Source: Candidatus Omnitrophota bacterium
Lineage (GTDB): Bacteria > CG03
Assembly: GCA_013791745.1 (NCBI GenBank)
Contig: VMTH01000153.1
Coordinates: 1 to 46,468 of the forward strand
Direction of reading: 5' to 3'
Length of the DNA: 46,468 bases
The position numbers and the translations under genes are program-made. Of the stretch, positions 2,862-27,875 are shown piece after piece. The notes below the pieces were generated by a model, which saw only the letters and a program-made list of their open reading frames with translations, ran no database searches and had not been told where the DNA came from. How positions within the stretch are numbered: the first letter of the stretch is position 1; every line of letters begins with the position of its first letter.

Positions 2862-3314
2862 TTACTCTATAGGTTCATACGTAACTACAAATTTTTTTGC
2901 CGCCCCGTCTTTGCTATATTCGAGAGTTACCACGGTGCGCCTTTTTTTCTGTATATCAAAATACAGATAATCCGGCTGGCGCAGCGCTTCGTCCATACTC
3001 CATGTTTTCAAAGATTCATGATAAATATATCTTTCCACCCTTAACAAATGCCGGTCCTCTATCAGCTTGGCCTCAAATTTTTTTTTCTGAGAACGTAATG
3101 CCACATTAGTGGAGCCGCTGTATTTTTTATCTATAAATATTTTGTAATAATTCTGAGTATCGGTCTCCGCCGATACGATCTCGTTGTCATAACTTACAAA
3201 CTTGAAATTACTGCTGTCTGTATTTTTTTTCTCCTCAAAATCCTTTTGCGGCGGCACGCTCGCGCAGGCGAACAAAAACACTGACATCGAAAGTAAAGTT
3301 AATTTTTTTAGCAT
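2862..3314 (-). CDS. Small lipoprotein, function unknown
   Basis: Signal peptide with lipobox (LLSMSVFLFAC). 16-nt gap to the upstream PPC-domain gene. No other motif. Confidence 0.6.
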   Translation of the reverse strand: MLKKLTLLSMSVFLFACASVPPQKDFEEKKNTDSSNFKFVSYDNEIVSAETDTQNYYKIFIDKKYSGSTNVALRSQKKKFEAKLIEDRHLLRVERYIYHESLKTWSMDEALRQPDYLYFDIQKKRRTVVTLEYSKDGAAKKFVVTYEPIE

Positions 3315-3330
3315 AATAGCGCCTCCTATT

Positions 3331-4932: not shown

Positions 4933-4950
4933 CTCGGATCCTCCTAAATG

Positions 4951-7900
4951 TTATCTAAACTTCAGCGGATATTCACCAAATATTAAAGGATATTTATCAT
5001 CAAACGGGCACTCTTTCGACGGTTTTACCAGTAAATAATCTTTAGCATAGGCCAGCCTGTTTTTGTTTTTCACAAAATAATCCCGCTCTCCCTGCAGATT
5101 AAAAACGCCTGTTCCATAAAGAACATACAAACTTTCCGCGCAAGCATCGGAAGCCGGAGCGATGAACACATTCTTCAGCTCATTTGCGCCGCCTAAAGCG
5201 TAAACATATTCCTCAAAACTATTGGGCTTTTGCCGGTTTAATTTCAAGATATACAGCGCTCCTCTTTTTACGCACCCTATGTTATCAATTTTTTCACCCG
5301 AAATAAATAGGGCTATCTCATCAATTCGATCGCCGTCTAAGTCCAGCGCCGTTATCCTTTCTATTTTGACCGCTCTGCGTATGCTGTCTGATTTAATTTT
5401 TTTGCCGTTTATATATAAAGCTTCGCCCGCCTTTACGCTCACATAATCGCTTTGCACGGTGCCATCCAAATCGGCCAAACAGCCCAGTTCGTCTTCTGTT
5501 TTAAATTTCAGGTTTACGGAAGACTGATTTAAAATATCACCGGCTGAAGGTATAGCGCCGCCGTAATAAACACACAGCCCTCCGCCAGTAACGGCAATAT
5601 CATCTATCCCGTCGCCGTTAAAATCACCGCTCTGCAGTTTACTGCCCGACAAGCCTGTTTTCTCCGAGCTTGTGAGGTAGACATCGGGATAGGTGGCGTT
5701 GAAAGACCAGTCTCCCGTTATCCTGGTACCGCCGTATATGCCGCACAATTTGTCCGCCTGAGCTTTATCATCGTAAACAATTGTGAAAAATATATCTTCA
5801 ATGCCGTCGCCGTTGAAATCTCCCGCGCACAAAGCGCCTATTTTCGCCGTATCATTTTGTTCGGGGACGATTTTTACGCTGTTGGCGTCATCAAAATGGA
5901 AGTCCCCGCGGTTGTGTAGGGTACGGCCGTATATGATTTTCAATCCGTCTTCGGCCGCATAAACGAGATCGTTTTTGTTATCGTTATCCGCGTCCACAAA
6001 AGCAAAACCCGCATCTGAGATATTTATCCCCTTTAATCTGTTGATATTATTGCCCTCTGATCGGTGCAGGGAATACATGGCTGTCGAAGAGTTCTCAGGT
6101 GTATATGTCACGCGGCTGCTCTTTCTATCCACAAAAAGATTTTTTGCGAGGGTAAGAATGAGTTTGGCGGCTAAATCGCTCCGGCTAACGGCCAAATCGT
6201 TCCCGCTCAAACTTTGAAACCAGTTACGCATTTCCTTCATATCGCCAGCCCGCATCGTTCCCGGGTGGGTCATGGCAGGCAATGCCTCTTCATAGGAACG
6301 CTCAAGCTCACCCATCTTAAAATAAAGGTATGCTCTATTCAGAGAGATGTGCACGGAAGTATAAGAGTCTTGTTGCAGTTCTTTTAAGTATTGTTCCGCG
6401 GTCGCGTATTTGCCGAGCTTGATATACGCCGCCGCTATATTATTTTTTATAATCGTTTTCTTGTTATCCGGTGCTTTATCGAGCATTTTTTTGAAACCCC
6501 GCAGAGCGCTTTTGTATTTACCTTTTTCGTATTTGCTAAGAGCTGTTATAAATTCGTTGCTAAGAGCGATCTCCTGATTTTGCTCTTTGCTTCTTGTGGT
6601 ATCAGTCTTGTGTTTAACGGAAAGTTCCTGATGTGCCGCGGGCGTTCGCAGGTAGTATCGCTCCAATAAGCGTAAGCTGCGATTAAAATAACCATGATGG
6701 GGGAAATACAGTAATCCTATAATCGTAAAAATCGCTATTCCCGCGGCATTTTTCATCCAATAGCGTTTTGCCGCTTTTCTCGAGGTTCTTATCAGCCATA
6801 GGGCATTCAGTAATATCCCGCCTATGATAACGAAAGGCATTAGCAGCACTATACCTCTCGCAATAAAATAACTTATGCTGTTTGATAAACTTCCCTGTGA
6901 GGTGTGAATAACTATAATGTGCCGGAACAGCGGGAACAGCCTTAAAAGCGGGTTATGTGTTATCAATTCTATTATGGGAAACCGACCGCCATAAAAAATA
7001 AAGCGGAAGCTCGCCATTATCCATACAAATATCAGGCCTGCGCCGAACCAGCCCAACAGGGCGGAGCTAAGTTTTTTCTTGTCTGCCGGAACGGCACTTT
7101 TTTTGATTTTCATCCATTTGTATGCTGCAGACATCGCAAAAATCAATAAAGGCAAACTCACCCACAAAAAAGGAAGCCTTTTGCCGTCGGGGTTAGTTCT
7201 TTTGACCGTTTTGGTTGGGCGTTGTTTTACCGGAGCGGCAGGTTTTACTTCACTCTTGGTCATGGCGGAGTTTGCTGTGCTGGTGTAGAGCTGCCGTATT
7301 TCAGTGGCTGTTAATGCCCTATTGTAGATTACTGTTTCGTCGATGAGACCTTTCCAATTAGATACTGTTCCTGTGGTGGTTCCTGCAATACGTATCTTTG
7401 TACTCCCAATAATAGTGCCTGGCGCAGAAAGCCCACTGCCATACTCAATTCCATTAACGTACAACCTTATAGTTGAACCATCATAAGTAGCAACAAGATA
7501 AGTCCATTGTCCTACGTTTACAGGCGGTCCACCGTAAAGTTTTAAAACACCATTGATATTAGCATAGATTCTATATGTGTGAGTGTTCCAGATGGTGAAC
7601 AAATTAAAACCACCATTATATTTTGTATCTGAAACAACAATTCCTCTATTAACATCCATTACCGCCGGATTAACCCACAAAGAATAGGTTACACTATTTG
7701 TCGGCAATAAATCCGGCTCACTTCCACAATCAACATAATCATTACTACCATCAAAATTCAGCGCTTGACCGTATTTGCCTTCATCCCAACTCGCTCCGTA
7801 TATCGTTCCGTCATTTCCTTTCCCGCTTTTATCGTTCAATATATTCCCCGAACCCTCGTCGAAATTCCAGCGCGCGACAAGACCTTCCGGTTTGGCATCT

Positions 7901-9678
7901 TGCGGCTGGTTATATTTTGATTCACTTTTGGCTAATTTGTCTCCTCCACAAAAAGAAGTGTAATATACTGTGTCAAGATGACCGCCACCGCTATTTCCCC
8001 CTGTGATATAGAGATAACCATTATTAACCACACTGGAATGACCAAGCAAAGAAACGAGAATTTTGTTGGGTGAAGTTGTAAAATTTCCAATGCTTCCGTC
8101 TGAGTTTATTTTTGCGTAATATACTGTGTTCAAAGTACCGGTAGCTACGCTCCCTCCGGTGATATAAAGATAACCATTATAAACCACGCTGACATGACCA
8201 TACAAAGAAGCGGGAATTTTGTTGGTTGAAGTGGTAAAACTTTCTATAGAGCCGTCAGAATTTATTTTCGCGTAATATAACGTGTTCTGATTACTGCTAC
8301 CGGTATTTCCCCCTGTAATGTAGAGATAGCCATTATTAACCACACTGGAATGAAGAGTCAAATTAGTGGGAATATTATTGGTTGAAGTTGTAAAACTTCC
8401 GATGCTTCCGTCTGAATTTATTTTCGCATAATATACTGTGTTCTGCTGACCGCGGCGGCTGGATCCCCCTGTGATGTACAAATAACCATTATTAACCACA
8501 CTGGAATGAGCATACAAAGAAGCGGGAATTTTGTTAGGAGAAGTTGTAAAACTTCCAATGCTTCCGTCTGAATTTATTTTCGCATAATATACTGTGTTCT
8601 GCTGAGCACTGCTGACATTCCATCCCCCCGTGATGTAGAGATAGCCATTACAAACTACGCTGGAATGAGCATACAAAGAAACAGGAATTTTGTTGGGAGA
8701 AGTTGCAAAACTCCCTAAGCTGCCGTCGGGGTTTATCTTTGCATAATACACGGTGTCACTGCTATTGCTTCCTCCAGTGATATAAAGATAGCCATTATTA
8801 ACCACACTGGAATGACTACTCACAGGAGCGGGAATTTTGCTGGATGATTTGATAAATGAATTGATTTCTCCGTTCCCATTATTATCAGCAATTTTTACCT
8901 GCGCGGTATTACCTTTTGATTCTGCATCCGGCGCTTTTTTATTCTTTGATTTTTCTTTGAATAAATTATAACTTTCCCTAATTTCATTCGCCGTCAACGC
9001 GCGTTTGTGTATCGTGACCTCGTCAAGGAGGCCTTTCCAATAATAGGGATAATTTCTATACGCAGGTTCAATTCCTATTGTAAGAGGAGATGGGCTATTT
9101 ACAGTACTTCCACCGCTCACATCAACAGAAATATCCAGGAGAGAGTTTATATAAATTCTGGAACTTGTCCCGTCATGCACCGCCACGATATGCTGCCATT
9201 TATCAGGCTCTAAAATCGCATTACTCTCTATAATATGCGGGTCAAAGCCCTCAACAATAAAACGCACTCGTCCATTATACAAGTCCAATCTATAATTGCG
9301 GAAAGCCTTATCTCCCTTTGAAACTATCATACGGCACTCCGATGCTGTATCATACGGAAAAACCCAGGCTTCTATACTAAGCGGCGGATGCATATTCACA
9401 CTCGCACTGTTGCCGCAATTAACATAATCATTCACCCCGTCAAAACTCAGCGCTTGCCCGTATTTGCCTTCCGTCCAGCTTGCGCCGTATATCGTCCCGT
9501 CGTTGCCGTTGCCGCTGATGTCGTGTAATAAACTGCCTTGTCCCTCGTCGAAATTCCAGTGCGCAATAATATCTTTGTCAACAGCAGATAGAAGGTTAGC
9601 GGAAAATAAAATAGTAAAACAGCATAAATGGACAAATTTATTGTTTAATTGCATATGCATTGCAGATGATGTTAACAT
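4951..9678 (-). CDS. Giant (1575 aa) multidomain envelope protein: signal peptide, LamG-like domain, 6 Kelch-like blades, second LamG-like domain, multi-pass TM block, TPR, FG-GAP/VCBS-like repeats
   Basis: LamG/concanavalin-like signatures occur twice (HWNFDEGQGSLLHDISGNGNDGTIYGASW..LDEVTIHKRALTANEI and RWNFDEGSGNILNDKSGKGNDGTIYGASW..IDETVIYNRALTATEI). Six GYLYITGG..TVYYAKINSDGS blades. About five hydrophobic helices at about nt 6690-7180. TPR-like KGKYKSALRGFKKML..LGKYATAEQYL. DFNGDGIEDI, GDFNGDGIDDIAV and LDLDGDRIDEIAL repeats. The start may be the internal Met at 9660 or 9654. Confidence 0.85.
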   Translation of the reverse strand: MLTSSAMHMQLNNKFVHLCCFTILFSANLLSAVDKDIIAHWNFDEGQGSLLHDISGNGNDGTIYGASWTEGKYGQALSFDGVNDYVNCGNSASVNMHPPLSIEAWVFPYDTASECRMIVSKGDKAFRNYRLDLYNGRVRFIVEGFDPHIIESNAILEPDKWQHIVAVHDGTSSRIYINSLLDISVDVSGGSTVNSPSPLTIGIEPAYRNYPYYWKGLLDEVTIHKRALTANEIRESYNLFKEKSKNKKAPDAESKGNTAQVKIADNNGNGEINSFIKSSSKIPAPVSSHSSVVNNGYLYITGGSNSSDTVYYAKINPDGSLGSFATSPNKIPVSLYAHSSVVCNGYLYITGGWNVSSAQQNTVYYAKINSDGSIGSFTTSPNKIPASLYAHSSVVNNGYLYITGGSSRRGQQNTVYYAKINSDGSIGSFTTSTNNIPTNLTLHSSVVNNGYLYITGGNTGSSNQNTLYYAKINSDGSIESFTTSTNKIPASLYGHVSVVYNGYLYITGGSVATGTLNTVYYAKINSDGSIGNFTTSPNKILVSLLGHSSVVNNGYLYITGGNSGGGHLDTVYYTSFCGGDKLAKSESKYNQPQDAKPEGLVARWNFDEGSGNILNDKSGKGNDGTIYGASWDEGKYGQALNFDGSNDYVDCGSEPDLLPTNSVTYSLWVNPAVMDVNRGIVVSDTKYNGGFNLFTIWNTHTYRIYANINGVLKLYGGPPVNVGQWTYLVATYDGSTIRLYVNGIEYGSGLSAPGTIIGSTKIRIAGTTTGTVSNWKGLIDETVIYNRALTATEIRQLYTSTANSAMTKSEVKPAAPVKQRPTKTVKRTNPDGKRLPFLWVSLPLLIFAMSAAYKWMKIKKSAVPADKKKLSSALLGWFGAGLIFVWIMASFRFIFYGGRFPIIELITHNPLLRLFPLFRHIIVIHTSQGSLSNSISYFIARGIVLLMPFVIIGGILLNALWLIRTSRKAAKRYWMKNAAGIAIFTIIGLLYFPHHGYFNRSLRLLERYYLRTPAAHQELSVKHKTDTTRSKEQNQEIALSNEFITALSKYEKGKYKSALRGFKKMLDKAPDNKKTIIKNNIAAAYIKLGKYATAEQYLKELQQDSYTSVHISLNRAYLYFKMGELERSYEEALPAMTHPGTMRAGDMKEMRNWFQSLSGNDLAVSRSDLAAKLILTLAKNLFVDRKSSRVTYTPENSSTAMYSLHRSEGNNINRLKGINISDAGFAFVDADNDNKNDLVYAAEDGLKIIYGRTLHNRGDFHFDDANSVKIVPEQNDTAKIGALCAGDFNGDGIEDIFFTIVYDDKAQADKLCGIYGGTRITGDWSFNATYPDVYLTSSEKTGLSGSKLQSGDFNGDGIDDIAVTGGGLCVYYGGAIPSAGDILNQSSVNLKFKTEDELGCLADLDGTVQSDYVSVKAGEALYINGKKIKSDSIRRAVKIERITALDLDGDRIDEIALFISGEKIDNIGCVKRGALYILKLNRQKPNSFEEYVYALGGANELKNVFIAPASDACAESLYVLYGTGVFNLQGERDYFVKNKNRLAYAKDYLLVKPSKECPFDDKYPLIFGEYPLKFR
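7950..8860 (-). repeat. Six tandem, highly similar about 156-nt coding repeats (Kelch-like blades) inside the giant gene
   Basis: The anchor string ccatta(t/c)(t/a)aa(c/a)c recurs at 8018, 8174, 8330, 8486, 8645 and 8792 (spacings 156, 156, 156, 159, 147 nt). Long near-identical stretches lie between copies, e.g. gcttccgtctgaatttattttcgcataatatactgtgttctgctga. Confidence 0.85.
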
Positions 9679-9801
9679 TTACCGGCTCAAATAACAATAA
9701 TAATATAGCACCGCATACTGCATGAAACATTGATGCTCGATAACATGGTTGATCTGAAACGAGGGCCGGCCGTTTTCAGGAGTTGTTCTCTTGGACAGAA
9801 T

Positions 9802-10554
9802 TCAAGTGTTTTGGGGCTTCCGCTCAAAAAAACGCTGAAGATAGGCCAGCGCCAGGCCCCGCCATTTTCCCCAGAGTTTTTTTGAGGCTTTATCAAGATC
9901 CGAGTTTATGCGGTAGTTTTCTCTCATTATTTTTTCGGTTAGGCAGTCTATGTAAAAAGCGCCGTAATTTCTTTTCTGGAATATTTCAAAAAGATTCAGG
10001 GAATACGGCCCTATCCCTTTTATTTTGCCGAGAGGAGTTTTCCCATACCCGGCAGCGAGGTTTTTAAGATACGCGCTTTTGTAGCCCAGCCGGAATCCGT
10101 CCAGGTTCCCGAGATAGCTCTCCTGTTTGAAATTCAGTTTTTCATAGAGCCTGAGCATTTGATCGCGGTAATGCGTATAGGAATTATTCTGCGAGACAAC
10201 GGCCCCGACCAGGGCCTCGAAATCGGAATAAGCCGAAATTATCCTTGTGCCTTTTATGCGCGGCAGAAAATTTTTCAAAACCCTGTCGCGTGAGCAGAGA
10301 GTCTTGAATTCAGTCAAGTCCTCATCCGCGCCGAAGCAATAGCGCAGGCGCTTTTTTATTATTTTTTTCTCTTTGTCGCCCAAAGAACAGTCAGCGCTCA
10401 CGGATAAGATGCTGTTTTTCTGCGCAAAGCCCAGGGTGAGGATTTTTCCCCCCGCGAGGATCCTGCGTTCCGGCTTGCGTCCGTAAAAGAAATAAAAAAG
10501 GCCAGATTTAAAAGTCTTATCAAAGTCGATATCTTTTAATTTTATTGAGAACAT
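9802..10554 (-). CDS. HhH-GPD superfamily DNA glycosylase (Ogg/AlkA-like)
   Basis: N-terminal FDKTFKSGLFYFF resembles the Ogg DLxxTLxSGQxFRW motif. FEALVGAVVSQNNS core. Helix-hairpin-helix LGKIKGIGPYSLNLFEIF followed by the conserved Asp (AFYIDCLT). Confidence 0.6.
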   Translation of the reverse strand: MFSIKLKDIDFDKTFKSGLFYFFYGRKPERRILAGGKILTLGFAQKNSILSVSADCSLGDKEKKIIKKRLRYCFGADEDLTEFKTLCSRDRVLKNFLPRIKGTRIISAYSDFEALVGAVVSQNNSYTHYRDQMLRLYEKLNFKQESYLGNLDGFRLGYKSAYLKNLAAGYGKTPLGKIKGIGPYSLNLFEIFQKRNYGAFYIDCLTEKIMRENYRINSDLDKASKKLWGKWRGLALAYLQRFFERKPQNT

Positions 10555-10734: not shown

Positions 10735-11415
10735 ATGAATAAAAAAATACAGATATTGCAGAAGATCGAGGCGTTCAGGGGCATTGCGCCGTCAGATTTG
10801 GAAAGCATTCTTGACTTCGGAAAATTCGTACAATTCAAGAACAGGGCTGTCGTAATTAAGGAAGATGAGCCCGGCCATCATATCTATTTTGTGGTGAAAG
10901 GCCGCGCGATGGTGTACAAAACATCCGACGACGGGAAAATAAAATCGCTGTCTATCGTCAACGAAGGCGAGCTCTTCGGGGAAATGGCGATCATAACCAA
11001 TTTGCCGCGATCCGCTTCCGTAAAAGCTATTGGACCGCTGACGCTTTTAAAACTTGACGCCGTTAATTTTAAGAAGCTGCTGAAAGATAATTCCTCCATT
11101 GCCATGTCGGTGCTGGCGAGTCTCTGCCAGCGGCTGCAGGACACCAACAAGCACATAGAGGTGCTCTTTTATCAGAGCGTTCCCGAGCGCACGGTCAAAG
11201 CTCTTGTGATGCTGGCCTCTTCCAAAGGCTCTGTGAAGACCCGCCGCCGGCGGCTTGTGCTGACCCAGCAGGAGCTCGCCGAGCTTGTGGGCTCCGCCAG
11301 AGAAGTGGTGAACCGGACGCTGCAGATCTTAAAGAGGGACGGTATGCTCGTGCTCAAAAAAGGGGCGATAGAGATTCCCGACCTGAACAAACTGAAAGAG
11401 TATAAAATAAACTGA
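10735..11415 (+). CDS. Crp/Fnr-family transcriptional regulator (cNMP-binding domain plus C-terminal HTH)
   Basis: cNMP pocket FGEMAIITNLPRSASVKA. HTH LTQQELAELVGSAREVVNRTLQILKRDGML. Confidence 0.85.
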   Translation: MNKKIQILQKIEAFRGIAPSDLESILDFGKFVQFKNRAVVIKEDEPGHHIYFVVKGRAMVYKTSDDGKIKSLSIVNEGELFGEMAIITNLPRSASVKAIGPLTLLKLDAVNFKKLLKDNSSIAMSVLASLCQRLQDTNKHIEVLFYQSVPERTVKALVMLASSKGSVKTRRRRLVLTQQELAELVGSAREVVNRTLQILKRDGMLVLKKGAIEIPDLNKLKEYKIN

Positions 11416-18211: not shown

Positions 18212-18288
18212 TTTAAACCTTTGCCTTCTTTGTCTCGGCGAGGAGGTATGCTAATTTTATTTTTGGAATATTGTTCAGGAGGATAGTG

Positions 18289-20772
18289 ATGAAACAGACA
18301 ATGACTGAGATGCAGTTCAAAGCGGAATTGGCCAAATGCGAATATTGCGAGGAAAGGCCCTGCGAATCCGCTTGCCCGGCGAATTGTTCGCCTTTTGAAT
18401 TTATAATGGCCTCGAAAGAGGGCGAAGCTCAGGATTATCTGCGAGCCGCATCCGCGATAATGAAGAGCAATCCGCTCGGCGGCGTCTGCGGCACGGTTTG
18501 TCCCGACAGGCACTGCATGGCGAAATGTTCGCACAAGGATTTTGACGGTTCCGTCAAAATACCCGAGGTGCAGGCCTACATAATACAGAAGGCCGGGGAG
18601 TTGGGCGGTATCCCGTGTTTTAATAAAGCGAAACCAAAAGGGGAAAAAATAGCTGTCATCGGCGCCGGGCCCGCCGGACTTGCCGCGGCGGCGGTGCTCT
18701 CGCAGAAGGGCTATCAGGTCGCTGTCTTTGAGAAAAACCGCCTTCCCGGCGGAGCCTGTAATCTCATACCCGCTTTCAGGCTGGACAGGAAGATCATCAA
18801 GACGGATATAGATTTCATAAAAGCGCTCGGAAGCATAGAGATACGCACAGGTCAGGCGGTGAAAGAAGCGACGGACCTGCTCAAAAAAGGTTATAAGGCC
18901 GTTATTTCGGCCACGGGTCTCTGGGCGCCGATTCTTCCCGGAATTGAAAATCAGGGCAAGGCTGTCAATGTCATAGACTATTTGATCAATCCGAAAAAAT
19001 ACAAATTCGCGGGCAAAGTCGCTGTCATAGGCGGTGGGGCATCCGCGGTTGACTGCGCGGTGACGGCGAAAAAAAACGGCGCCTCAAAGGTGGAGATGTT
19101 TATCCTTGAAACAGTTTCCGAGATGCCGCTGAGCGCCAAGGAAAGAGTAGAGCTCCTTGAAAACGGCATTGAACTGACCAACAGAACATCGGTGACGGCG
19201 ATAAAGACAAAGAGCGGAAAAATTTCAGGGCTCACAACGGTAAAGGTCGATCTTGCCGCCGGCAAAAAATTCGCGCTCAAAGATCTGAAGACGATCCCCG
19301 GCACGGAGCAGTCAAGAAACGACATCAAAAATGTGATCATCGCCATAGGCACCCGCGCCGAAAAACGTTTTGCCACGGCGAAAGGAGTTTTCTCTGCGGG
19401 AGATTATGCCAACGGCCCCACGACGGTTGTCGAGGCTGTCGCTTCCGGAAAAAACGCCGCGGAAGATGCCGCGGCTTATCTTGCCGGCAAAAAAGCATCG
19501 AAGGTGAAAAAGGATGTTAAGAGCACCGTGGAGATCAGCGGCTATGAGCCGCTCCCCGTTTCTCTTGAGACGGATTTCTTCGGCAGAAAAATAAATTCAC
19601 CGTTTCTGCTTTCTGCGGCCCCCCCGTCGGACGGTTATGACCAGATGAAGAAAGCTTATGAAGCCGGCTGGGCGGGCGGAATTATGAAGACCGCTTTTGA
19701 CGGTGGCGGTATACACATCCCCGGCGAATATATGCATACTTTCAACGACACAACTTACGGCAATTGTGATAATGTGTCAGGGCACACCCTGACAAGAGTC
19801 TGTGGAGAGGTAAAAAAACTGGTAAAAGAATTTCCGGATAGGCTGACAATGGCTTCAACTGGAGGCCCTGTCACAGGAAACGATAAGGAAGACAAAAAAG
19901 GCTGGCAGGCCAACACGAAGAAACTTGAAAACGCCGGAGTTATGGGTATAGAGTATTCTCTTTCCTGTCCTCAGGGCGGCGACGGCACCGAGGGAGATAT
20001 CGTTTCGCAGAACGCCGCGCTCACGGCCAGGATAATAGACTGGGTGATGGAAGTGTCAGACCCGAAAATACCGAAACTCTTCAAGCTCACCGGCGCGGTC
20101 ACCTCTATTGTTCCGATAGCCAGGGCCATCAAGGAAGTGTTTGACAAATATCCCGGTAAGAAAGCCGGCATCACACTCGCCAACACTTTCCCCGTCGTGG
20201 ATTTCAGGCCCGGCAAAAAAGGCAAATGGGATGAAGCCATTGTTTTCGGTATGAGCGGCGAGGCGGTGGCCCCGATAAGCTATAACAACCTGGTATGCGC
20301 GATGCCTGTGGGGCTTTCAATATCCGGCAACGGCGGGCCTATGAATTACAAACAGGCGTCTCATTTTCTCGCCATCGGCGTGAAGACCGTGCAGTTCTGC
20401 ACGATGCCGACAAAATACGGCTACGGTATATACGATGAACTTTGCAGCGGCGTGAGTTATCTTATGAAGCAGAGAGGGATCAAATCCATGAAAGATCTCA
20501 TAGGAATAGCCCAGCCCAATCCCATAACAGGTTTTATGGATATTTCACCGACGAAAAAAATATCGTCGCTTATAGATAAGGAAATTTGTCTCAGCTGCGG
20601 CAACTGCGCGCGCTGTCCCTACCAGGCGATCTCGCTCGACAAAGACGGCTTCCCGGAGATCGACCCCGCGAAATGCATCGGCTGTTCCATCTGTACGAAG
20701 AAATGCTTTACCGGCGCTCTTGAGATGAGAAAGAGAACTCCGAAAGAAATGAAACAGCTCAAAGAAGATTAA
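18289..20772 (+). CDS. Fused dihydropyrimidine-dehydrogenase-like Fe-S flavoprotein (GltD/PreT-like module + PreA/DHOD-like TIM barrel + 2x[4Fe-4S] ferredoxin tail)
   Basis: N-terminal Cys clusters (CEYCEERPCESACP, CGTVCPDRHC). Two Rossmann motifs (KIAVIGAGPAGLAAA, KVAVIGGGASAVDCA). PreA-like barrel with active-site LSCPQGG. C-terminal CLSCGNCARCP and CIGCSICTKKC. ATG 18289 has AGGAGG 6 nt upstream; the listed TTG 18271 is less likely. Confidence 0.75.
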   Translation: MKQTMTEMQFKAELAKCEYCEERPCESACPANCSPFEFIMASKEGEAQDYLRAASAIMKSNPLGGVCGTVCPDRHCMAKCSHKDFDGSVKIPEVQAYIIQKAGELGGIPCFNKAKPKGEKIAVIGAGPAGLAAAAVLSQKGYQVAVFEKNRLPGGACNLIPAFRLDRKIIKTDIDFIKALGSIEIRTGQAVKEATDLLKKGYKAVISATGLWAPILPGIENQGKAVNVIDYLINPKKYKFAGKVAVIGGGASAVDCAVTAKKNGASKVEMFILETVSEMPLSAKERVELLENGIELTNRTSVTAIKTKSGKISGLTTVKVDLAAGKKFALKDLKTIPGTEQSRNDIKNVIIAIGTRAEKRFATAKGVFSAGDYANGPTTVVEAVASGKNAAEDAAAYLAGKKASKVKKDVKSTVEISGYEPLPVSLETDFFGRKINSPFLLSAAPPSDGYDQMKKAYEAGWAGGIMKTAFDGGGIHIPGEYMHTFNDTTYGNCDNVSGHTLTRVCGEVKKLVKEFPDRLTMASTGGPVTGNDKEDKKGWQANTKKLENAGVMGIEYSLSCPQGGDGTEGDIVSQNAALTARIIDWVMEVSDPKIPKLFKLTGAVTSIVPIARAIKEVFDKYPGKKAGITLANTFPVVDFRPGKKGKWDEAIVFGMSGEAVAPISYNNLVCAMPVGLSISGNGGPMNYKQASHFLAIGVKTVQFCTMPTKYGYGIYDELCSGVSYLMKQRGIKSMKDLIGIAQPNPITGFMDISPTKKISSLIDKEICLSCGNCARCPYQAISLDKDGFPEIDPAKCIGCSICTKKCFTGALEMRKRTPKEMKQLKED

Positions 20773-20910
20773 AATAACTGCAAATTTGGCGAATGGAGAA
20801 ATTAGAACGCATGGCTATGTCGAATTTCTTGAAGCTGAAAAATGTTTAAAAAATGCAGATGTATTTAAGATTTCTGTTGATGAATTGAACGGAAGAAATA
20901 AGGAGATAAA

Positions 20911-21783
20911 ATGAGCAGAAAAAATTCAAAAGCAGAATTTGTTAAATGGCTCGGGCCACTTTTAGATGCATTGCGAGATTTAGGGGATTCGGGTAAGCCA
21001 AGGGAGGTTTCAAATAAAATTGCTGAGAATTTAAGTTTACCGGATGATTTATTAGATGAGATTTTAAAATCAGGTATAAACAAATTTCATAATCAAGTGG
21101 CATGGGCAAGACGATACCTTGTTTGGGAAGGTTTGTTGGATTCTTCAAAATATGGAACTTGGAAACTTACGGAGGAAGGGAAGAAAACACATTTAAATGA
21201 CGAAGAAGCAAGAAATATATTTTTAAAATGGGTTGAAATATATCAAAGGGCAAGAAAGGAAAAAGAAAGCTCTAAAATAATTGAAGATCAAGAAGAAAAA
21301 ACTCCTGAAGAATATCAAAAAGAAACTCCTGCTGATTTACTTTACACATTACAGAATTTATCGCCGTCAGGATTTGAAAAAATATGCAAGGAATTATTGA
21401 GAGAACATGGTTTTGACAATGTTGTTGTTACCGGCGCATCTCACGACGGCGGAATTGATGGATACGGTACATTAGAACTAAATCCTTTTGTTAGTTTTAA
21501 AGTTATTTTTCAATGTAAAAAATATCAGGGTTCTGTATCTAGGGCGCAAGTAGGAGATTTTAGAAATGCTATGATCGGTCGGGCTGAAAAGGGGATAATT
21601 CTGACAACCGGATCTTTCACGAGTGAAGCGATAAAAGAAGCAAATAGGGAAGGTGCTCCGCCAATAGAATTAGTAGACGGGAATAAATTAATTGAAATGT
21701 TTGAAAAAGTAGAATTAGGGGTTAATGCTAAAGTCGTATATGAGGTTGATGTAGAATATTTTAAAAAATATATTGACGAATGA
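20911..21783 (+). CDS. mrr: Mrr-family type IV (modification-dependent) restriction endonuclease
   Basis: Mrr_N-like winged-helix N-terminus (FVKWLGPLLDALRDLGDSGKPREVSNKIAE). Mrr_cat core with D..QxK (GGIDGYG..VIFQCKKY). AAGGAG RBS 6 nt upstream. Confidence 0.85.
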   Translation: MSRKNSKAEFVKWLGPLLDALRDLGDSGKPREVSNKIAENLSLPDDLLDEILKSGINKFHNQVAWARRYLVWEGLLDSSKYGTWKLTEEGKKTHLNDEEARNIFLKWVEIYQRARKEKESSKIIEDQEEKTPEEYQKETPADLLYTLQNLSPSGFEKICKELLREHGFDNVVVTGASHDGGIDGYGTLELNPFVSFKVIFQCKKYQGSVSRAQVGDFRNAMIGRAEKGIILTTGSFTSEAIKEANREGAPPIELVDGNKLIEMFEKVELGVNAKVVYEVDVEYFKKYIDE

Positions 21784-21872
21784 TCTTTTTAGAGCAGTTC
21801 CCTTTGCAATTTCTAATCTTGTCAATAATAGTTTTCATTCCCTGTCTATTGTAAGCCTGCAACCAATCAGCA

Positions 21873-23432
21873 TTATTTGCGCTGGTCGGGCTTGGCCGTT
21901 CTTGGCCCGGCCCACTTAGAATAAATTTTCTTAAAGTCGGCATAAAGTTTCCGCAACAGCTGAAGTTCTTTTTTCTTGACCAATCTCCCATGCATTATCT
22001 TATTTCTAATCGGAATAATTTCACTTATCCAAGACAGGAGTTTATCTTTGTTTCTGTTTCTCTCAGTAAGAAAATACTTTCCGAATATGCCCTGCCAATT
22101 TGCTTTTGTTTTTATTATTTTCTGCAAATCCTTTAAATACATATACGCAAAGGACTCATAAAGGCATGAATCATCCTCTCTTCTCGCCGCACAAGTTTTC
22201 TTAATTTCTCCATCCGCAACACCACTAACCCACCATTTTTTAGTACCATACAAACTCTTTAAGTTTTCCTTAACAAATTTGCGGAGCATTGTCTCCAACG
22301 ATAATACAAGCTCATATCCCGGCGTATTATAATTACTTACCTTTTCCAGTAAATCTTCTGTCCGCGTGCCAGCTTTAATTTTCCTAATTTTCTTATGGGT
22401 CTTTACCCATTTAATAAATTTTCCGCACTTTTTAGTAAATGCTTTTTGTTGCTCATCTTCCCCCACTTCTTGTAGGTATTTCTGAGCATTATCATATTTC
22501 CCTAAAATCGTGCATTCAAAAAGCCTTGCTATTTTCTCATATGTTTTTCTTATGTTTTTTTTCTCTCTTTCTGTGCGCCGCAATACCATTATATCCATAT
22601 AGGCATTTGAGATTATATTATCTATTTGCCCCTCAGATCTTTCAAGTAACGCATTGACACAAAGCTCTATTCTGTCGTCAATGGTTGTGATACTTTTTAC
22701 AACACCGTCAAAATAATATAATTCCTCTTGCCATTTAATCTGCTGTTTGAATTCAGAATCATCTATTTTATTATGCAAATTAAATTCCTTCAATCTCATA
22801 TAAAGCTCAAAGGCGTCTAACACCTTCCCTTTGCTGAAATAATTATCGGCCAGTATTAACGAACTTATATATCTATCCCCGTCATTAAGATCCTCATCCA
22901 ACAAAAATTGTTTACCATAAATTTTTTCAATTAACAGAGAGATTGAAATATTTTGCATTCCCAAAAAACCGCAAAACATCCAACAGAAGGCAGCTTCTAA
23001 AGCTTTATCAAAAACTAAGTCGATTCGTTTCAATATAAATATCATTAATCTTTGAAGATTGCCTAAATATGCATCTCTATTTTCAAGATGGCTATTGTCA
23101 TCTGCCAAATAATTATCATAACCCATAAGGTGACCTACTGCATTCATATACTCATTAAAATCGTTCCACCCCTTTTTTATACCCTCTTCAAAAATTGGCT
23201 CGAAATTCGTGTCGGCAAATATATTCGAAAACAAATATGCGAAATATAGATTCTTATCCTGTGGATTTTTATGGAATTTTCGTTCAATATTAGTTATTGT
23301 TTTTGTGTCTATTCTCAACTCAGATTTAGTGGTGCCAACAATATGGGGCAACCATCCCCTCTCCCATTCATAATGGTATTCGGCTTTATTAACTGGACAA
23401 GCTACTCTTGCGTTTGGAGCAATTTTAATCAT
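21873..23432 (-). CDS. Unknown about 385-aa N-terminal region fused to a C-terminal Swt1-like HEPN (predicted RNase) domain
   Basis: The C-terminus reads LETMLRKFVKENLKSLYGTKKWWVSG..YLKDLQKIIKTKANWQGIFGKYF..IIPIRNKIMHGRL. The Rx4H catalytic motif RNKIMH lies at nt 21990-22007. No motif is recognised in the N-terminal part. Confidence 0.7.
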   Translation of the reverse strand: MIKIAPNARVACPVNKAEYHYEWERGWLPHIVGTTKSELRIDTKTITNIERKFHKNPQDKNLYFAYLFSNIFADTNFEPIFEEGIKKGWNDFNEYMNAVGHLMGYDNYLADDNSHLENRDAYLGNLQRLMIFILKRIDLVFDKALEAAFCWMFCGFLGMQNISISLLIEKIYGKQFLLDEDLNDGDRYISSLILADNYFSKGKVLDAFELYMRLKEFNLHNKIDDSEFKQQIKWQEELYYFDGVVKSITTIDDRIELCVNALLERSEGQIDNIISNAYMDIMVLRRTEREKKNIRKTYEKIARLFECTILGKYDNAQKYLQEVGEDEQQKAFTKKCGKFIKWVKTHKKIRKIKAGTRTEDLLEKVSNYNTPGYELVLSLETMLRKFVKENLKSLYGTKKWWVSGVADGEIKKTCAARREDDSCLYESFAYMYLKDLQKIIKTKANWQGIFGKYFLTERNRNKDKLLSWISEIIPIRNKIMHGRLVKKKELQLLRKLYADFKKIYSKWAGPRTAKPDQRK

Positions 23433-23570
23433 ATTTTTATCATGGCATTACCGTCTATTTTCCCCGTGCGTTCGGTAGATGGCGTTCGCCTGGAGCGGGG
23501 CGACAATTTTGTTGCGACCAAACATCATAAATTTTCTGAAATATAAACATTTTTTCATTCTGAAGCCATT

Positions 23571-24452
23571 TTAGTAATGATAGCCAATGAAAAAACCGAA
23601 ATGTCCGCCCCCAGCGTTACCACTCCAGTCTCCTATAGTTATTTTTGCATACGACGATTTCATTTCTAATCCTATGTTAAAACTTTCATTTAGTGTCCAG
23701 TACACACCGCCCCCTATCCAATAACCCGTACCGCTATCAGAGATGGAACCCAAATCATATCCACCGGAAGAATATGTCACTTCGCCTCTGATAAAAGAAA
23801 TTCCTCCGCCAATAAATGGTCGAACATTTAAATTTCGATCCCAAATTTTGCGAATTCCTATATTCAGCTCGGAGAGTTTAGCCTCACAATCTATCCAGCC
23901 ATAGTAATAGAAAGTTCCTTCTCCAATGGAATTTGAATAGTCGACAACAAGACTCACCGGCCAATGCTGTTCTTTAAAGTCAAAAGCTATACCTGCTTCA
24001 TCTTGTTCCTCTACAGGCGTCCAGTCTTCTTCCTTTAAGGCCTTCGCCCCGAAATAAATGTTAATATTCCCAGTCCAGTTTTCCTGTTGATATTGGCTGT
24101 TTCTTTTAGGTTGTCGAAGATTTTCTTTTTCTTCTGCCTCAATTGTTTTTTCCAATTTTCTGATTTCATCATCAAGGTCTTTAGCAGGTTTTTCTTCGCT
24201 TTGTTGAAGCAATCTTAAATTTTCCTCAACTGGAATAAGATACATGGAATCAATGCCTTTAGTTTCATATTTCTGAATTAGTCTATTTAAGAAATTTATC
24301 TGAGCGCTCTTTCCTGCCGGCTTTATAACTCGTTCATAATATTGCATATCACTCGCAAGAGATTCTTTTAAATCTTCTTGCGCGGCATGCGCTGAATTTG
24401 AGGAAAATATAAATACTCCGCACAAAACAGACAATAAAAAAAACTTGTTCAT
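23571..24452 (-). CDS. Secreted protein: charged coiled-coil-like N-terminal half plus small C-terminal OMP-type beta-barrel
   Basis: Signal peptide ..SSNSAHA/AQ. E/K-rich segment (EEKPAKDLDDEIRKLEKTIEAEEKENL). C-terminal alternating Gly/aromatic strands ending GFFIGYHY. GGAGG RBS. Confidence 0.55.
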   Translation of the reverse strand: MNKFFLLSVLCGVFIFSSNSAHAAQEDLKESLASDMQYYERVIKPAGKSAQINFLNRLIQKYETKGIDSMYLIPVEENLRLLQQSEEKPAKDLDDEIRKLEKTIEAEEKENLRQPKRNSQYQQENWTGNINIYFGAKALKEEDWTPVEEQDEAGIAFDFKEQHWPVSLVVDYSNSIGEGTFYYYGWIDCEAKLSELNIGIRKIWDRNLNVRPFIGGGISFIRGEVTYSSGGYDLGSISDSGTGYWIGGGVYWTLNESFNIGLEMKSSYAKITIGDWSGNAGGGHFGFFIGYHY

Positions 24453-24536
24453 TTTTTCCTCCCTCTATCAAATTTAACTTTTTTGGAATATATTCGCAAG
24501 GTTCAAGCAAAACCTGATTTTATTTCTCTGCGGGCA

Positions 24537-25124
24537 TCAGCTCGGGACGCAGTCGTTTATGATACTCAGCATATCCTGAAGTGTGTCATAACCTTCGGGA
24601 AGGGCCATCCACCATCGGAAGAACACAATATTTGAGCCGCTTTTAAATTTGAATTCTTCGATTGTGCCGTCGCATCCTATGGAGGCATTCGCGGATGAGT
24701 TTATCAAACCTTTTCTGCTATGGACCAGATCTTTTAGGAGATTGAGGACTTCCATCGCTTTTTCTTTGGAGATTTCAGCTTCGGTTTTGGGAATAGGTCC
24801 GCCCCTGCGACGTTCATCATAGGAGTAACCGTCTCTTTTAAATTCTTCGCATGCTGCAAAGTATTTGTCTTTGCGCCTGTAAATGCCCGTCTGCCATGGC
24901 CTGTGGAAAGACGGCAGTGTGATAAATTCAAGACGCTCAAAGTCTTCTATATTATCAGAAAATATGATCTTTTCCTCCAACATGGCTTCCGGCCGATAAG
25001 GTTTCCATTTTTTATGGATTGTTTTGCCTGTCTTAGCGCTCCATTCCGTGCATTCGCCACCGCCTAATTTTGTTTGCAGGCCGTATTTCGGCCTAATCCT
25101 TTTGAATCCCAGTTCTTCTTTCAT
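24537..25124 (-). CDS. Hypothetical cytoplasmic protein (195 aa), no recognisable domain
   Basis: ORF with GGGAG RBS 7 nt upstream of the ATG. No signal peptide. No motif recognised. Confidence 0.5.
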   Translation of the reverse strand: MKEELGFKRIRPKYGLQTKLGGGECTEWSAKTGKTIHKKWKPYRPEAMLEEKIIFSDNIEDFERLEFITLPSFHRPWQTGIYRRKDKYFAACEEFKRDGYSYDERRRGGPIPKTEAEISKEKAMEVLNLLKDLVHSRKGLINSSANASIGCDGTIEEFKFKSGSNIVFFRWWMALPEGYDTLQDMLSIINDCVPS

Positions 25125-25427
25125 AATTTTCTCCCTTCATTCAGTTCCGCAACGGGCCAAAAATATTATCAATAGCCCGCGCCGCCAAAGAAATAACTAT
25201 TTTTGCACCCCCCCCTATATATGTATGGTGCATTGGAGGCCTAAACGTTACATCTTGTTGGCCAAATGTCCAAAATTTCAACATGGGAAGTGATATTAGT
25301 TACTGTGTGGAAATGGTTATTTTTTCTCATCTGATTCAAAAGCGTGAAGATTGCTTGTTTTTTAGCTAATGTTCACGGTTATGGTGACACAAGCGTGAAA
25401 AGATGTATCGCGCAATCGCGTACTGAT

Positions 25428-25871
25428 TTAGAAGGACCAGTTAATAAAAGGCATAACAGGTAAGACGCCGCCTTTGTCTATTATGTTGATGAGACCGATT
25501 TGCAGGCCCTTTAAACTCCCGGCATAATTTACCACGCCAAGTTGCAGGCCTTTTGCATTTCCGGCATAATTCACAAATCCCATTTGCAGGCCGCTGAAAT
25601 CCCCCTTACTGATATTTCCTAAAAAATTATACTGCCAGCCGGTGAACGATGAATCCGCCAAGCCAACCAGGCCCAGGTCCACCCCCTCCACGGATTCATT
25701 GCGGCCGTAAAGAAAGTTGAGGCGCAAACCCGATATAGATGTTTCAGCGCTTACAAGCTGTACCGGATCAACCAGCGCCAGCTGCAGGGGTTTTGTGCCT
25801 GCCTGTGCCGCTGCCGCAAAAGCGAGCGCAATAATGATCGTTTCAAGCAAAGTCTTAAAATTTCTTTTCAT
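25428..25871 (-). CDS. Small secreted protein with tandem G-L-Q-x-G-x-x-N-x-A repeats
   Basis: Signal peptide (IIIALAFAAAAQA). Repeats GLRLNFLYGRN, GVDLGLVGLAD, GLQMGFVNYAGNAK, GLQLGVVNYAGSLK, GLQIGLINIID. GGGAGG RBS. Confidence 0.6.
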   Translation of the reverse strand: MKRNFKTLLETIIIALAFAAAAQAGTKPLQLALVDPVQLVSAETSISGLRLNFLYGRNESVEGVDLGLVGLADSSFTGWQYNFLGNISKGDFSGLQMGFVNYAGNAKGLQLGVVNYAGSLKGLQIGLINIIDKGGVLPVMPFINWSF

Positions 25872-26020
25872 TTCACACCTCCCGATAGTTCAATTGTCGC
25901 AATAGTGCTCCCATAATACAAGGGTCGCTTTAATGGCCCGGAGACTAAAAAATAGTATCTGCGCCTCGGCGGCTTTTCCTTTTTGTGTTCAGTATCATTG
26001 TAGTCAAGCAAAGTGATAAT

Positions 26021-26049
26021 TCGCCATTTTTTTTATTTTGTGTTAAAAT
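26021..26049 (+). promoter_or_regulatory. Possible extended -10 promoter for the zinc-ribbon/ssnA gene pair
   Basis: -35-like TCGCCA (26021-26026), 17-nt spacer counted to the -10 hexamer TAAAAT (26044-26049), which carries the extended TGt at 26041-26043. About 50 nt upstream of the ATG at 26099. Confidence 0.35.
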
Positions 26050-26098
26050 GACAAGCATGGCCCTGAAGATTTTAGGCCGGAAAGGCACGGAGGAATAA

Positions 26099-26521
26099 AT
26101 GGATTGTCCTAAATGTAAAAAACTTCTGAGCAGCGGGATTTTCGCTGATGTCGTTTATCACAAGTGCGAAAGCTGCGGCGGGTTCTGGTTTGATAAGGAC
26201 GAGCTGAAAGAAATCAAAAAACAGAAAGACTGGTTCAAGCTGGATTCCGGAGTCAGCGGTGCGACATCAAAATCCTACAGGGGCGAATTGAAATGTCCGC
26301 GCTGCGATGAGAAACTGCACACCATAGAATACGCACAGGAAAGCGGTATCAAGGTCGATATCTGTTCCGGATGTGACGGGCTGTGGCTGGATTCGGGGGA
26401 ACTCAAAGCCATACATGAGGCGTGTGCGACCTGGATAGAAAAGCTGAAAGAAAAAGCGGAAGAAGAATTAATAGCGATAGAACTTTTTTTAATAGAAGCG
26501 GGGAAGTTTTCGCCGCAGTAA
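26099..26521 (+). CDS. Double zinc-ribbon protein (two zf-TFIIB-type CxxC..CxxCxGxWxD modules)
   Basis: CPKCKK..CESCGGFWFDKDELKEI and CPRCDE..CSGCDGLWLDSGELKAI. GGAGG RBS. Confidence 0.65.
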   Translation: MDCPKCKKLLSSGIFADVVYHKCESCGGFWFDKDELKEIKKQKDWFKLDSGVSGATSKSYRGELKCPRCDEKLHTIEYAQESGIKVDICSGCDGLWLDSGELKAIHEACATWIEKLKEKAEEELIAIELFLIEAGKFSPQ

Positions 26522-26534
26522 ATAAGGAGAATTT

Positions 26535-27875
26535 ATGAGCAGGATTTTAATCAAGAACGGGACCGTGTTTGACGGAAAGAATGTGAGAAAAGCGGATATC
26601 TATATCAAAGACGGCAAGATTGACGCCGTCGCTTCCAAAATTAAAAGATCGGGCGTGCAGGTGATAGACGCTTCCGGCAAAGTTGTTCTGCCGGGTTTTA
26701 TATGCGCGCATCATCATCTTTATTCCACGATGGCCCGCGGCATGGGAATTCCGGGAACGCCCGCGAAAAATTTTCAGGAAGTGTTAGACAGATTGTGGTG
26801 GCCGCTGGACAGGGCGCTGGATAAGGAAGACCTTTATCTTTCGGCCCTTTACGCTCTCGGCGAATGCATACGCTGGGGCACAACGACGATAATAGATCAT
26901 CACGAGAGCCAGAATTTTCAGAAAGGTTCGCTTGATACTCTGATGAAAGCCTGCGAGAAAGCCGGCATCCGCGCCGCGCTTACGCTCGGCTCAAGCGACA
27001 GATACGGCAAGGGCATGGAAGGCGTCGAGGAGAATGAAAGGTTCCTGAAAAAACTTAAAAAAGAAAAACACCCGCTGATACAGTGCATGGTAGGACTTCA
27101 CGCGGCTTTTACCGCAAATGATAAAACCTTAAAGGCCTCAGCCGATCTGGCGAAAAAATACAATTGCGGTTTGCATATCCATGTGGCGGAAGCCAAATCG
27201 GACGAAGACGCCTCGGTGAAAAAACACAGAATGAGAGTTGTTGAGAGACTGAATAAATTAGGCGCTCTCGGTAAAAAAACGATACTCGTGCACTGCGTTC
27301 ACACAAACGACAAAGAGGCGGCGCTTATCAAAAAAACAGATTCCATTGTTGTGCACAACTCCGAATCCAATATGAACAACGCTGTGGGCTGGTCTGATGT
27401 GCTGACCTTTCTCAAAAAGGGCGTTCTCACCGGTCTCGGCAGCGATGGCATGAGTTCCAATATGCTCCAGCAGCTCCGCTGCGCTTATCTGATAGCGCGT
27501 CACGCCAAAGGCGATCCGAGGGTGGGGTTTATGGAAGCTCCGACGATGTTATTGCAGAACAACGCGCAAATCGCTTCCCGCATATTCGGCGGTTCCTTCG
27601 GCTCAATAGCGAAGGGAAAGGTCGCGGACATCGCCATTATGGATTATTTTCCGCCCACGCCTCTTAATTCCGGAAATTTCCTCGGCCATCTTATTTTCGG
27701 CCTTGTTAACTGCCAGGTGGACACGACAATCGCGAGCGGGAGGATTCTCATGAAGAACAAGAAGATCCTTGCTTTCGACGAGAAAAAACTTTCCGAAGCC
27801 ATATCCAAAAGGGCTCCGGAGTTCTGGAAAAGATTCAACAAAGAGGCAACAACAAAAAAGAGCTGGAAAGTCTGA
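26535..27875 (+). CDS. ssnA: SsnA-type amidohydrolase (chlorohydrolase/aminohydrolase superfamily)
   Basis: HxH metal motif (FICAHHHLY). The blocks LWWPLDRALDKEDLY, IIDHHES, GVEENERF, HNSESNMNNAVGW and DYFPPTPL match my recollection of E. coli SsnA. Confidence 0.7.
   Translation: MSRILIKNGTVFDGKNVRKADIYIKDGKIDAVASKIKRSGVQVIDASGKVVLPGFICAHHHLYSTMARGMGIPGTPAKNFQEVLDRLWWPLDRALDKEDLYLSALYALGECIRWGTTTIIDHHESQNFQKGSLDTLMKACEKAGIRAALTLGSSDRYGKGMEGVEENERFLKKLKKEKHPLIQCMVGLHAAFTANDKTLKASADLAKKYNCGLHIHVAEAKSDEDASVKKHRMRVVERLNKLGALGKKTILVHCVHTNDKEAALIKKTDSIVVHNSESNMNNAVGWSDVLTFLKKGVLTGLGSDGMSSNMLQQLRCAYLIARHAKGDPRVGFMEAPTMLLQNNAQIASRIFGGSFGSIAKGKVADIAIMDYFPPTPLNSGNFLGHLIFGLVNCQVDTTIASGRILMKNKKILAFDEKKLSEAISKRAPEFWKRFNKEATTKKSWKV

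Follow-up and report, generated by a model that had tools for sequence, protein, structure and literature searches.

What does a 519-amino-acid (aa) protein, annotated at NCBI as 'hypothetical protein', do beside a type IV restriction gene in an AT-rich islet of a bacterial genome? The question is raised by positions 21873 to 23432 (minus strand) of contig VMTH01000153.1 from Candidatus Omnitrophota bacterium (assembly GCA_013791745.1); the contig was analysed over its whole length of 46,468 nucleotides (nt), which is called the window here. We found that the protein carries a C-terminal HEPN domain of the Swt1 type behind a long N-terminal module and that it belongs to a tiny family. With a confidence slightly above even, we read it as a stand-alone HEPN RNase of defence or abortive infection that would be controlled by an all-helical N-terminal sensor or regulator. 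The parts of the gene are as follows (window coordinates).

21873..23432, minus strand: the 519-aa gene, with an N-terminal helical module, a linker and a C-terminal HEPN domain (from the list of open reading frames (ORFs) and the homologues)
22398..23432, minus strand: N-terminal module, residues 1-345, predicted all-alpha (AlphaFold2 (AF2) model; no database match)
22323..22397, minus strand: Lys-rich, low-confidence linker, residues 346-370 (predicted local distance difference test score (pLDDT) <50 for residues 345-370)
21909..22322, minus strand: HEPN domain of Swt1/PDC-M34B type, residues 371-508 (Pfam, PADLOC, AF2, identity to a protein of the metagenomic contig L043, and charge)
22281..22295, minus strand: E380-T-M-L-R384, the E-x3-[KR] motif of active HEPN domains (four-sequence alignment)
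21990..22007, minus strand: catalytic R476-N-K-I-M-H481 (Rx4H), read directly from the sequence

The sole Pfam match of the 519-aa protein is HEPN_Swt1 (PF18731), with 30.4 bits over residues 379-489 against a gathering threshold of 27.5 bits, and the homologue P0002 likewise exceeds this threshold with 32.8 bits. The best PADLOC match is the candidate family PDC-M34B (PDLC04592; 1.1e-9), which covers residues 363-500 and profile positions 52-186 of 192 and is a domain-level match only; the same family is matched by all four members of the protein family described below. In an alignment of the 519-aa protein with P0002, P0004 and P0005 (21-43% identity to the query), E380, R384, R476, N477 and H481 are invariant, N477 being the polar residue directly after the conserved R. 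Catalytically active HEPN domains are described as having Rx4-6H, a polar residue (N/D/H) after the R and an upstream E-x3-[KR] (PMC3710099), and all three are present in the 519-aa protein. Such domains are described as metal-independent RNases that leave 2',3'-cyclic phosphate ends. Judged from sequence, the C-terminal domain is thus a Swt1/Abi2-clade HEPN domain with all the sequence hallmarks of an active, metal-independent RNase. Only one Rx4-6H is conserved across the family, and therefore the protein has just one HEPN domain, which is strongly basic, with 34 K+R vs 16 D+E and a net charge of +18. The second of two AF2 models gives pLDDT 75-87 for residues 371-508, with helices 373-395, 462-480 and 487-508 and a helical insert at 400-454, and it puts the Rx4H motif at the end of the long predicted helix 462-480, as expected of HEPN helix 3; the HEPN fold is an up-down bundle of four helices with an insert between helices 2 and 3. 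Foldseek gave no significant structural match for the HEPN part, the Csm6 entry 5yjc_B reaching only a probability of 0.63 (E 0.81).

These results bear on the original prediction, an earlier reading of the window without database searches. All strings that it quoted are present in the translation of the 519-aa ORF, the codons of RNKIMH are read at 21990-22007, and its Swt1-type HEPN domain in the C-terminal ~140 aa scores over the Pfam gathering threshold. Its helix-1 pattern E-x2-LR had to be corrected to E-x3-R (E380...R384). A missing HEPN match or unconserved R and H residues had been named as grounds for giving up the assignment; at the sequence level neither was found, because the HEPN_Swt1 match is there at 30.4 bits and the R, N and H of Rx4H and the E-x3-R are invariant.

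The gene itself is not a chance ORF, which is excluded by the homologues P0002 (43% identity) and P0004 and P0005 (21-25%). Two start codons compete for it. In public assemblies the automatically called product has 492 aa, from a TTG that is preceded by the Shine-Dalgarno (SD)-like GAGAGGGGA (window 23352-23432, minus strand), while the ATG at 23432, which lies five codons downstream of an in-frame stop, has no SD. The segment EY(H/D)YEWERGWL, 5' of the TTG, is kept in P0002 with four synonymous codon differences, and the TTG itself is CTA in P0002. Because of this coding-level conservation upstream of the TTG and its replacement by CTA, the ATG at 23432 is in our reading of the sequence the true start, which suggests non-SD initiation. 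Identical 519-aa proteins have been deposited from four contigs of metagenome-assembled genomes (MAGs): MBA3052884.1, MBU2529112.1, MBU3929459.1 and MBU4122844.1.

How large is the family? An exhaustive HMMER search with a profile of residues 1-362 against 1.84 billion representative proteins, clustered at 50% identity, found five proteins and four true clusters. P0001 is a shorter call of the 519-aa gene itself, and P0003 was rejected as a tandem-repeat artefact. The three other true clusters are P0002, the 43%-identical homologue, and the distant relatives P0004 (583 aa) and P0005 (578 aa), in which the same module is followed by the same HEPN domain with the Rx4H motifs RNTVYH and RNTIFH, respectively. 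At the N-terminus, P0004 and P0005 have in addition a CxxC...CxxC zinc ribbon, which is missing from the 519-aa protein, and one P0005 relative comes from a MAG of Candidatus Curtissbacteria. Three word-indexed searches of 5.8 billion proteins (with the single sequence, a three-sequence and a four-sequence profile) returned P0001 and P0002 only. The family alignment, scanned against GTDB genomes, IMG/VR and JGI metagenomes, gave no full-length relative, and a second scan of JGI metagenomes gave L043 only, a relative of the HEPN domain. Moreover, the gene was not found in 185,579 species-representative genomes, and neither 72,556 plasmids nor 50,697 phages gave a tblastn match. The family is therefore extremely rare, with four clusters among 1.84 billion representatives. 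The protein had been called an orphan, which is not strictly so, since this tiny four-cluster family exists.

The N-terminal module had been described as helical and free of recognisable motifs, and this description stands. Residues 1-345 have no match in Pfam, NCBIfam, PADLOC, PHROGs or PDB sequences (PDB was searched with the single sequence and with a profile, with nothing meaningful), nor in Foldseek searches of PDB and BFVD, and the module is all-helical in AF2, with pLDDT 81-89 for residues 40-100. The entries ranked highest by Foldseek are solenoids of the TPR/Sel1 type, all non-significant (E>=0.18, TM-score <0.2), and no TPR or Sel1 Pfam match occurs in the module. By eye, the TPR residue register is matched by two helix pairs, at residues ~185-221 and ~297-330. 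We treat the 'TPR-like' character of the module as a lead only. Its invariant columns in the four-sequence alignment are mostly hydrophobic, and none holds an invariant residue of catalytic type. The family has no conserved transmembrane segment, the 519-aa protein matches no ATPase or P-loop family of Pfam or NCBIfam, and hhalign found no similarity between the module and the HEPN domain. The module is under constraint: compared with P0002, it and the HEPN domain are similarly conserved (43.5% and 45.7% identity), while at longer range the module diverges faster (17-20% vs 29-36%). The linker is the least conserved segment in the comparisons with P0002 and P0004; against P0005 it is 22.7% identical, over the 16.7% of the module.

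We next consider where the gene is located. It shares a short islet with its restriction neighbour.

20911..21783, plus strand: Mrr-type type IV restriction endonuclease (REase), 290 aa (Mrr_N 9.8e-21, Mrr_cat 6.2e-30, PADLOC mREase_IV 1.3e-27)
21784..21872, no strand: convergent intergenic spacer, 89 nt, with no evident bidirectional terminator
20773..23500, no strand: AT-rich islet of 2.7 kb that holds Mrr and the HEPN gene (GC 0.31-0.37; homology break against locus L005)

Both the AT-rich island and the convergent Mrr gene across an 89-nt gap had been recognised from the letters alone, and both are confirmed. The GC content is 0.31-0.37 from ~20,800 to 23,500 vs ~0.50 on either flank, and the left boundary of the islet falls exactly at the stop codon (~20772) of a conserved oxidoreductase gene. 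A DNA identity of ~90% to the closest relative genome, HGW-Elusimicrobia-2 (L005), reaches this stop codon and then ends abruptly. At the same site (L005:7917-9312), HGW-Elusimicrobia-2 has MntA/HepT-type cargo in place of Mrr and the HEPN gene: a HepT RNase (1.6e-31), an MntA nucleotidyltransferase divided between overlapping ORFs of 69 and 111 aa (possibly a frameshift or a pseudogene) and a 179-aa unknown protein. Because the homology breaks at the oxidoreductase stop and L005 holds MntA/HepT there, the site is a hotspot that exchanges conflict cargo. In the window, the 833-aa DPD-like Fe-S flavin oxidoreductase (18271-20772) and a 446-aa amidohydrolase (26535-27875) are 5.8 kb apart. In many relatives of several phyla the amidohydrolase gene directly follows the oxidoreductase gene; the two are adjacent in loci L019, L020, L026, L028, L029, L032 and L034, and they are neighbours in MAGs of Elusimicrobia, Deltaproteobacteria, Cloacimonadota, Ignavibacteriae and Holophaga. 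They are a conserved gene pair, which is interrupted in the window. Horizontal transfer probably brought the 519-aa gene, and probably Mrr with it, to this variable hotspot of an Elusimicrobiota chromosome.

The flanking oxidoreductase is 95% identical to its HGW-Elusimicrobia-2 counterpart, and by the sequence affinity of its flanking genes the window belongs to Elusimicrobiota. At NCBI the source MAGs are entered as 'bacterium' or 'Candidatus Omnitrophota'; these labels may be inconsistent, because the closest relatives of the flanking genes are all from Elusimicrobia MAGs. No integrase or transposase was found in the window around the islet, and no credible att-like repeats flank it. Over 20000-26500, Rfam (E<=1) gave no associated non-coding RNA (ncRNA). 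The 89-nt spacer shows no unusual folding (z-score 0.39), and the scan found no terminator-like site in it. A 23-nt imperfect direct repeat (19/23; AAATAAGGAGA...ATGAGCAG) occurs at 20896-20918 and 26520-26542, 5624 nt apart. One copy covers the ribosome-binding site (RBS) and start codon of Mrr, the other those of the amidohydrolase; the repeat brackets all of the DNA inserted between the oxidoreductase and amidohydrolase genes, which are otherwise neighbours, and is absent from locus L006. This repeat could be a recombination scar or a chance likeness of two RBS/start contexts.

The surroundings of the 519-aa gene are a defence island, and the neighbours of one distant relative are of a similar kind. 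P0004 is flanked by a Dsr1 homologue (2.9e-135) on one side and a type II REase (7e-15) on the other; the order in L039:1-6655 is Dsr1, a 174-aa unknown protein, P0004 and the NmeDI_C/type II REase, all on one strand at 31% GC. The JGI metagenome contig L043 encodes the nearest HEPN-domain relative, a 319-aa HEPN_Swt1 protein (53.9 bits; PDC-M34B 8e-26) whose HEPN domain is 31% identical over 133 aa (E 5e-14) to that of the 519-aa protein. It is placed inside a PbeA-PbeC cassette that adjoins DndACDE. The two proteins have in common the pattern E-x3-R...WW...NW..IF.KYF...P(I/L)RN.I.H, matches to both PF18731 and PDC-M34B, and a position beside DNA-restriction genes; they differ in the N-terminal region, which in the L043 protein is unrelated to that of the 519-aa protein. 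These surroundings support the defence reading of the 519-aa gene circumstantially. No neighbour gene is common to the family loci, and the 519-aa protein would therefore act as a stand-alone unit. The island of L043 (585-12968) has DndA, DndE, DndD and DndC on one strand and PbeA, PbeC, the 319-aa HEPN protein, a 204-aa unknown protein and a 551-aa HATPase_c_3 protein on the opposite strand; the 319-aa ORF overlaps the end of PbeC, and no DndB, PbeB or PbeD was recognised on this contig.

HEPN active sites are normally composites of two domains and work in dimers (PMC13092281; PMC3710099), from which we infer that the 519-aa protein is active only as a homodimer or higher oligomer. In the mechanism that we propose, the N-terminal module would keep the RNase latent and serve as sensor or regulator. 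During infection its cue would be binding of a protein or nucleic acid of the phage, or the loss of a host factor, and this sensing would license dimerisation or unmasking of the HEPN domain. The RNase would then cut tRNA, rRNA or mRNA and translation would stop. Such an arrest would lead to abortive infection or dormancy that backs up the DNA-level restriction by Mrr. As a bolder and rather doubtful extension, the N-terminal module may be a new infection-sensing domain, and the 519-aa protein and its zinc-ribbon relatives a new single-gene abortive-infection family whose trigger and RNA target would differ from those of the known HEPN systems. The trigger might, for instance, be that the adjoining restriction enzyme loses its activity, which would make an ATPase-free guard mechanism.

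Defence systems in which a single protein unites a sensor and a HEPN domain are already known, and ApeA is one of them. HEC-08 is a single protein with a DUF3644 HEPN domain and zinc ribbons (bioRxiv 10.1101/2024.01.29.577857), and DS-11 joins CBS and HEPN domains that are both needed (PMC13092281); in both systems mutation of the HEPN motif abolishes defence. Like these, the 519-aa protein is one polypeptide with one Rx4-6H HEPN domain and a non-catalytic accessory domain, and a zinc ribbon is present in P0004 and P0005, too. On the other hand, the HEPN subfamilies of HEC-08 and DS-11 are DUF3644 and others whereas that of the 519-aa protein is Swt1-like, its accessory module is all-helical, ~345 aa long and without detectable relative, and the domain order is reversed relative to HEC-08. 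In helical-repeat proteins related to Avs7/Dsr1 a large alpha-helical sensor is fused directly to a HEPN-like RNase without an NTPase (PMC13581612). The concept of a helical sensor on a HEPN-like RNase is therefore shared, but the 519-aa protein has no PADLOC Dsr1 match, and hhalign against the Dsr1 fragment of L039 gave a probability of 0.2%. By analogy, the 519-aa protein may work most like the validated one-protein systems HEC-08, DS-11 and the protein that joins an Avs7/Dsr1-type sensor to a HEPN domain.

Several other systems were considered and rejected. PDC-M34 is a PADLOC candidate system, a two-gene cassette (FAM_01148>>FAM_01657). Neither the 519-aa protein nor the four neighbouring ORFs match M34A at E<=1, and because this partner is absent, as gene or as domain, the 519-aa gene is not a PDC-M34 system. 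A Cas13-like (type VI) system, which has two HEPN domains and an adjacent CRISPR array, does not fit one conserved Rx4-6H and the lack of array-like tandem repeats near the gene. The Abi2/AbiD/AbiF systems were likewise dismissed, with no Abi_2 Pfam match at E<=1 and no RF03085 ncRNA (Rfam E<=1, 20000-26500). Abi2/Swt1-clade HEPN domains embedded in restriction-modification (R-M) operons were already reported in 2013 (PMC3710099). The HEPN_Swt1/PDC-M34B-like domain family is already known; the novelty lies in the N-terminal module and the architecture.

Several points tell against the sensor-controlled defence RNase proposed here and have to be set beside it. P0004 and P0005 have no Pfam HEPN_Swt1 match at E<=1; they nonetheless align across the HEPN domain and match PDC-M34B. 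The first AF2 model, from three sequences, was poor (pLDDT 51), and the second, from four sequences, reached a pLDDT of 62.8 overall. In Foldseek the best match of the module in PDB and BFVD had E 0.18 and was not significant, and hhalign between segments of the module found no significant internal repeats (P>=0.023). The role of the module as a sensor is therefore reached by elimination. Promoter and terminator scans around the gene stayed at chance level, and Mrr and the 519-aa gene are not co-transcribed, because they are convergent. Moreover, informative neighbours exist at two family loci only, namely the window and P0004: the contig of P0002 is too short for neighbours, and those of P0005/P0009 are unknown proteins and a DUF6794 protein. 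The earlier call of a defence effector is accordingly upheld in part, by the islet shared with Mrr, the Dsr1 and REase genes beside P0004 and the Pbe/Dnd setting of L043, and is limited by this number of informative loci.

Among the other explanations, the one that survives best, though we think it rather unlikely, is that the gene is a selfish addiction module or toxin: a self-restrained RNase that stabilises the Mrr islet or its carrier element without specific anti-phage sensing, its N-terminal module being a cis-antitoxin. It is indeed a classical HEPN toxin-antitoxin pair, MntA/HepT, that fills the hotspot in the closest relative; toxin-antitoxin systems commonly contain HEPN toxins (PMC3710099), and the patchy distribution and foreign composition of the gene would suit such an element. 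However, no antitoxin gene, MNT or other, is conserved beside the family members, the islet lacks an integrase or transposase around it, and a conserved helical module of 345 aa is large for a simple cis-inhibitor. The gene is also not a HepT/MntA (type VII) system itself. HepT is likewise a HEPN RNase toxin, and a pair of this type occupies the same hotspot in L005, but the 519-aa protein is ~4 times larger and has its own N-terminal module, and a HepT/MntA assignment was rejected since neither the gene nor its neighbours have a HepT-like (DUF86) or NTP_transf_2 Pfam match.

A guard similar to PrrC/RloC appears unlikely. Here the HEPN RNase would sit latent on the adjoining REase, with the helical module as docking surface, and fire when a phage anti-restriction protein disables that enzyme. 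The anticodon nucleases PrrC and RloC are HEPN RNases that are linked to restriction and are thought to be a second line when restriction is evaded (PMC3710099), and the 519-aa gene resembles them as a HEPN RNase effector genetically linked to restriction. At both informative loci an REase is the immediate neighbour (Mrr in the window, the type II enzyme beside P0004), and the HEPN-domain relative of L043 is embedded in a Pbe restriction cassette. The reported occurrence of Abi2/Swt1-clade HEPN domains in R-M operons (PMC3710099) and the coupling of HEPN effectors to type IV McrBC-like systems in CoCoNuTs (PMC11090510) point in the same direction. Against a guard, the REase families at the two loci, Mrr and NmeDI-like type II, are unrelated, and therefore no specific docking partner is conserved; no REase lies within the short P0005/P0009 contigs. 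PrrC and RloC have an N-terminal ABC-ATPase and lie inside R-M operons, whereas the HEPN gene here is convergent with Mrr instead of co-operonic and has no ABC-ATPase, NTPase motif or other regulatory domain of the PrrC/RloC type. A PrrC-like domain architecture was rejected for want of any ATPase or P-loop match.

The weakest alternative, that the protein is a housekeeping RNase or, as eukaryotic Swt1, a silent RNA-recognition HEPN protein in non-defensive RNA processing or binding and adjoins Mrr by chance, is very unlikely: HEPN domains of eukaryotic Swt1 and Las1 do serve core RNA metabolism and the P0005/P0009 neighbourhood has no recognisable defence gene, but all catalytic-motif residues are invariant, and the gene does not look like a housekeeping gene because it is extremely rare (only 4 clusters among the 1.84 billion representatives), has a foreign AT-rich composition, and was found neither at this locus of the closest relative nor in the 185,579 species-representative genomes.

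With regard to other genes near the islet, three co-oriented ORFs lie 5' of the HEPN gene (23571-25871, minus strand) at an intermediate GC of 0.34-0.45. The 293-aa ORF has a signal peptide and only weak matches to outer-membrane beta-barrel and PorG-like proteins, and by sequence it looks like a secreted outer-membrane beta-barrel protein. The 195-aa ORF has no matches, and the 147-aa ORF is a repeat lipoprotein of the LA_2272/VC2662 family with 42-nt tandem repeats (25495-25604). None of the three was found in a related locus except that of the same strain. Two co-oriented upstream ORFs had been proposed as sensor or restraint of the RNase, an idea that is not supported, since they are not conserved beside other family members; the 293-aa and 195-aa ORFs were rejected as partners on this ground.

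The remainder of the window is housekeeping, with a Crp-type regulator, RelA/SpoT, RecG, PurH and others. The Crp/Fnr-type regulator (10735-11415, plus strand; cNMP_binding and HTH_Crp_2) is matched by the PADLOC models for PycTIR and Pycsar effectors (1e-15), but the match is confined to its cyclic-nucleotide-binding domain and looks like a domain-level cross-match, not like the sign of a defence gene. At 4951-9678 (minus strand), a giant surface-type protein of 1575 aa combines Kelch, Laminin_G_3, FG-GAP and TPR domains. Its gene has 156-nt (312-nt) tandem repeats at 7987-8847 and lies in a second stretch of lower GC (3001-10000, GC 0.39-0.46).

Finally, HEPN effectors with a variable accessory domain beside R-M genes are a well-described theme (PMC3710099), and a specialist would not be surprised by the general design of the 519-aa protein, because this combination is already documented. 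If the protein is active, it would be one more compact one-protein RNase system of immunity or abortive infection, with a sensor domain that has no detectable relatives, and it would be a further instance of the recurrent combination of DNA restriction and an RNA-level back-up by HEPN proteins. The locus is also a clear instance in nature of a chromosomal hotspot at which near-identical genomes differ in their conflict cargo by exchange: one has Mrr and the HEPN gene, the other MntA/HepT. The hosts of the family belong to uncultured lineages (MAGs labelled Elusimicrobiota or Omnitrophota, and Curtissbacteria of the candidate phyla radiation) whose defence repertoires are poorly known, and the 519-aa gene is a reasonable candidate for experimental work.

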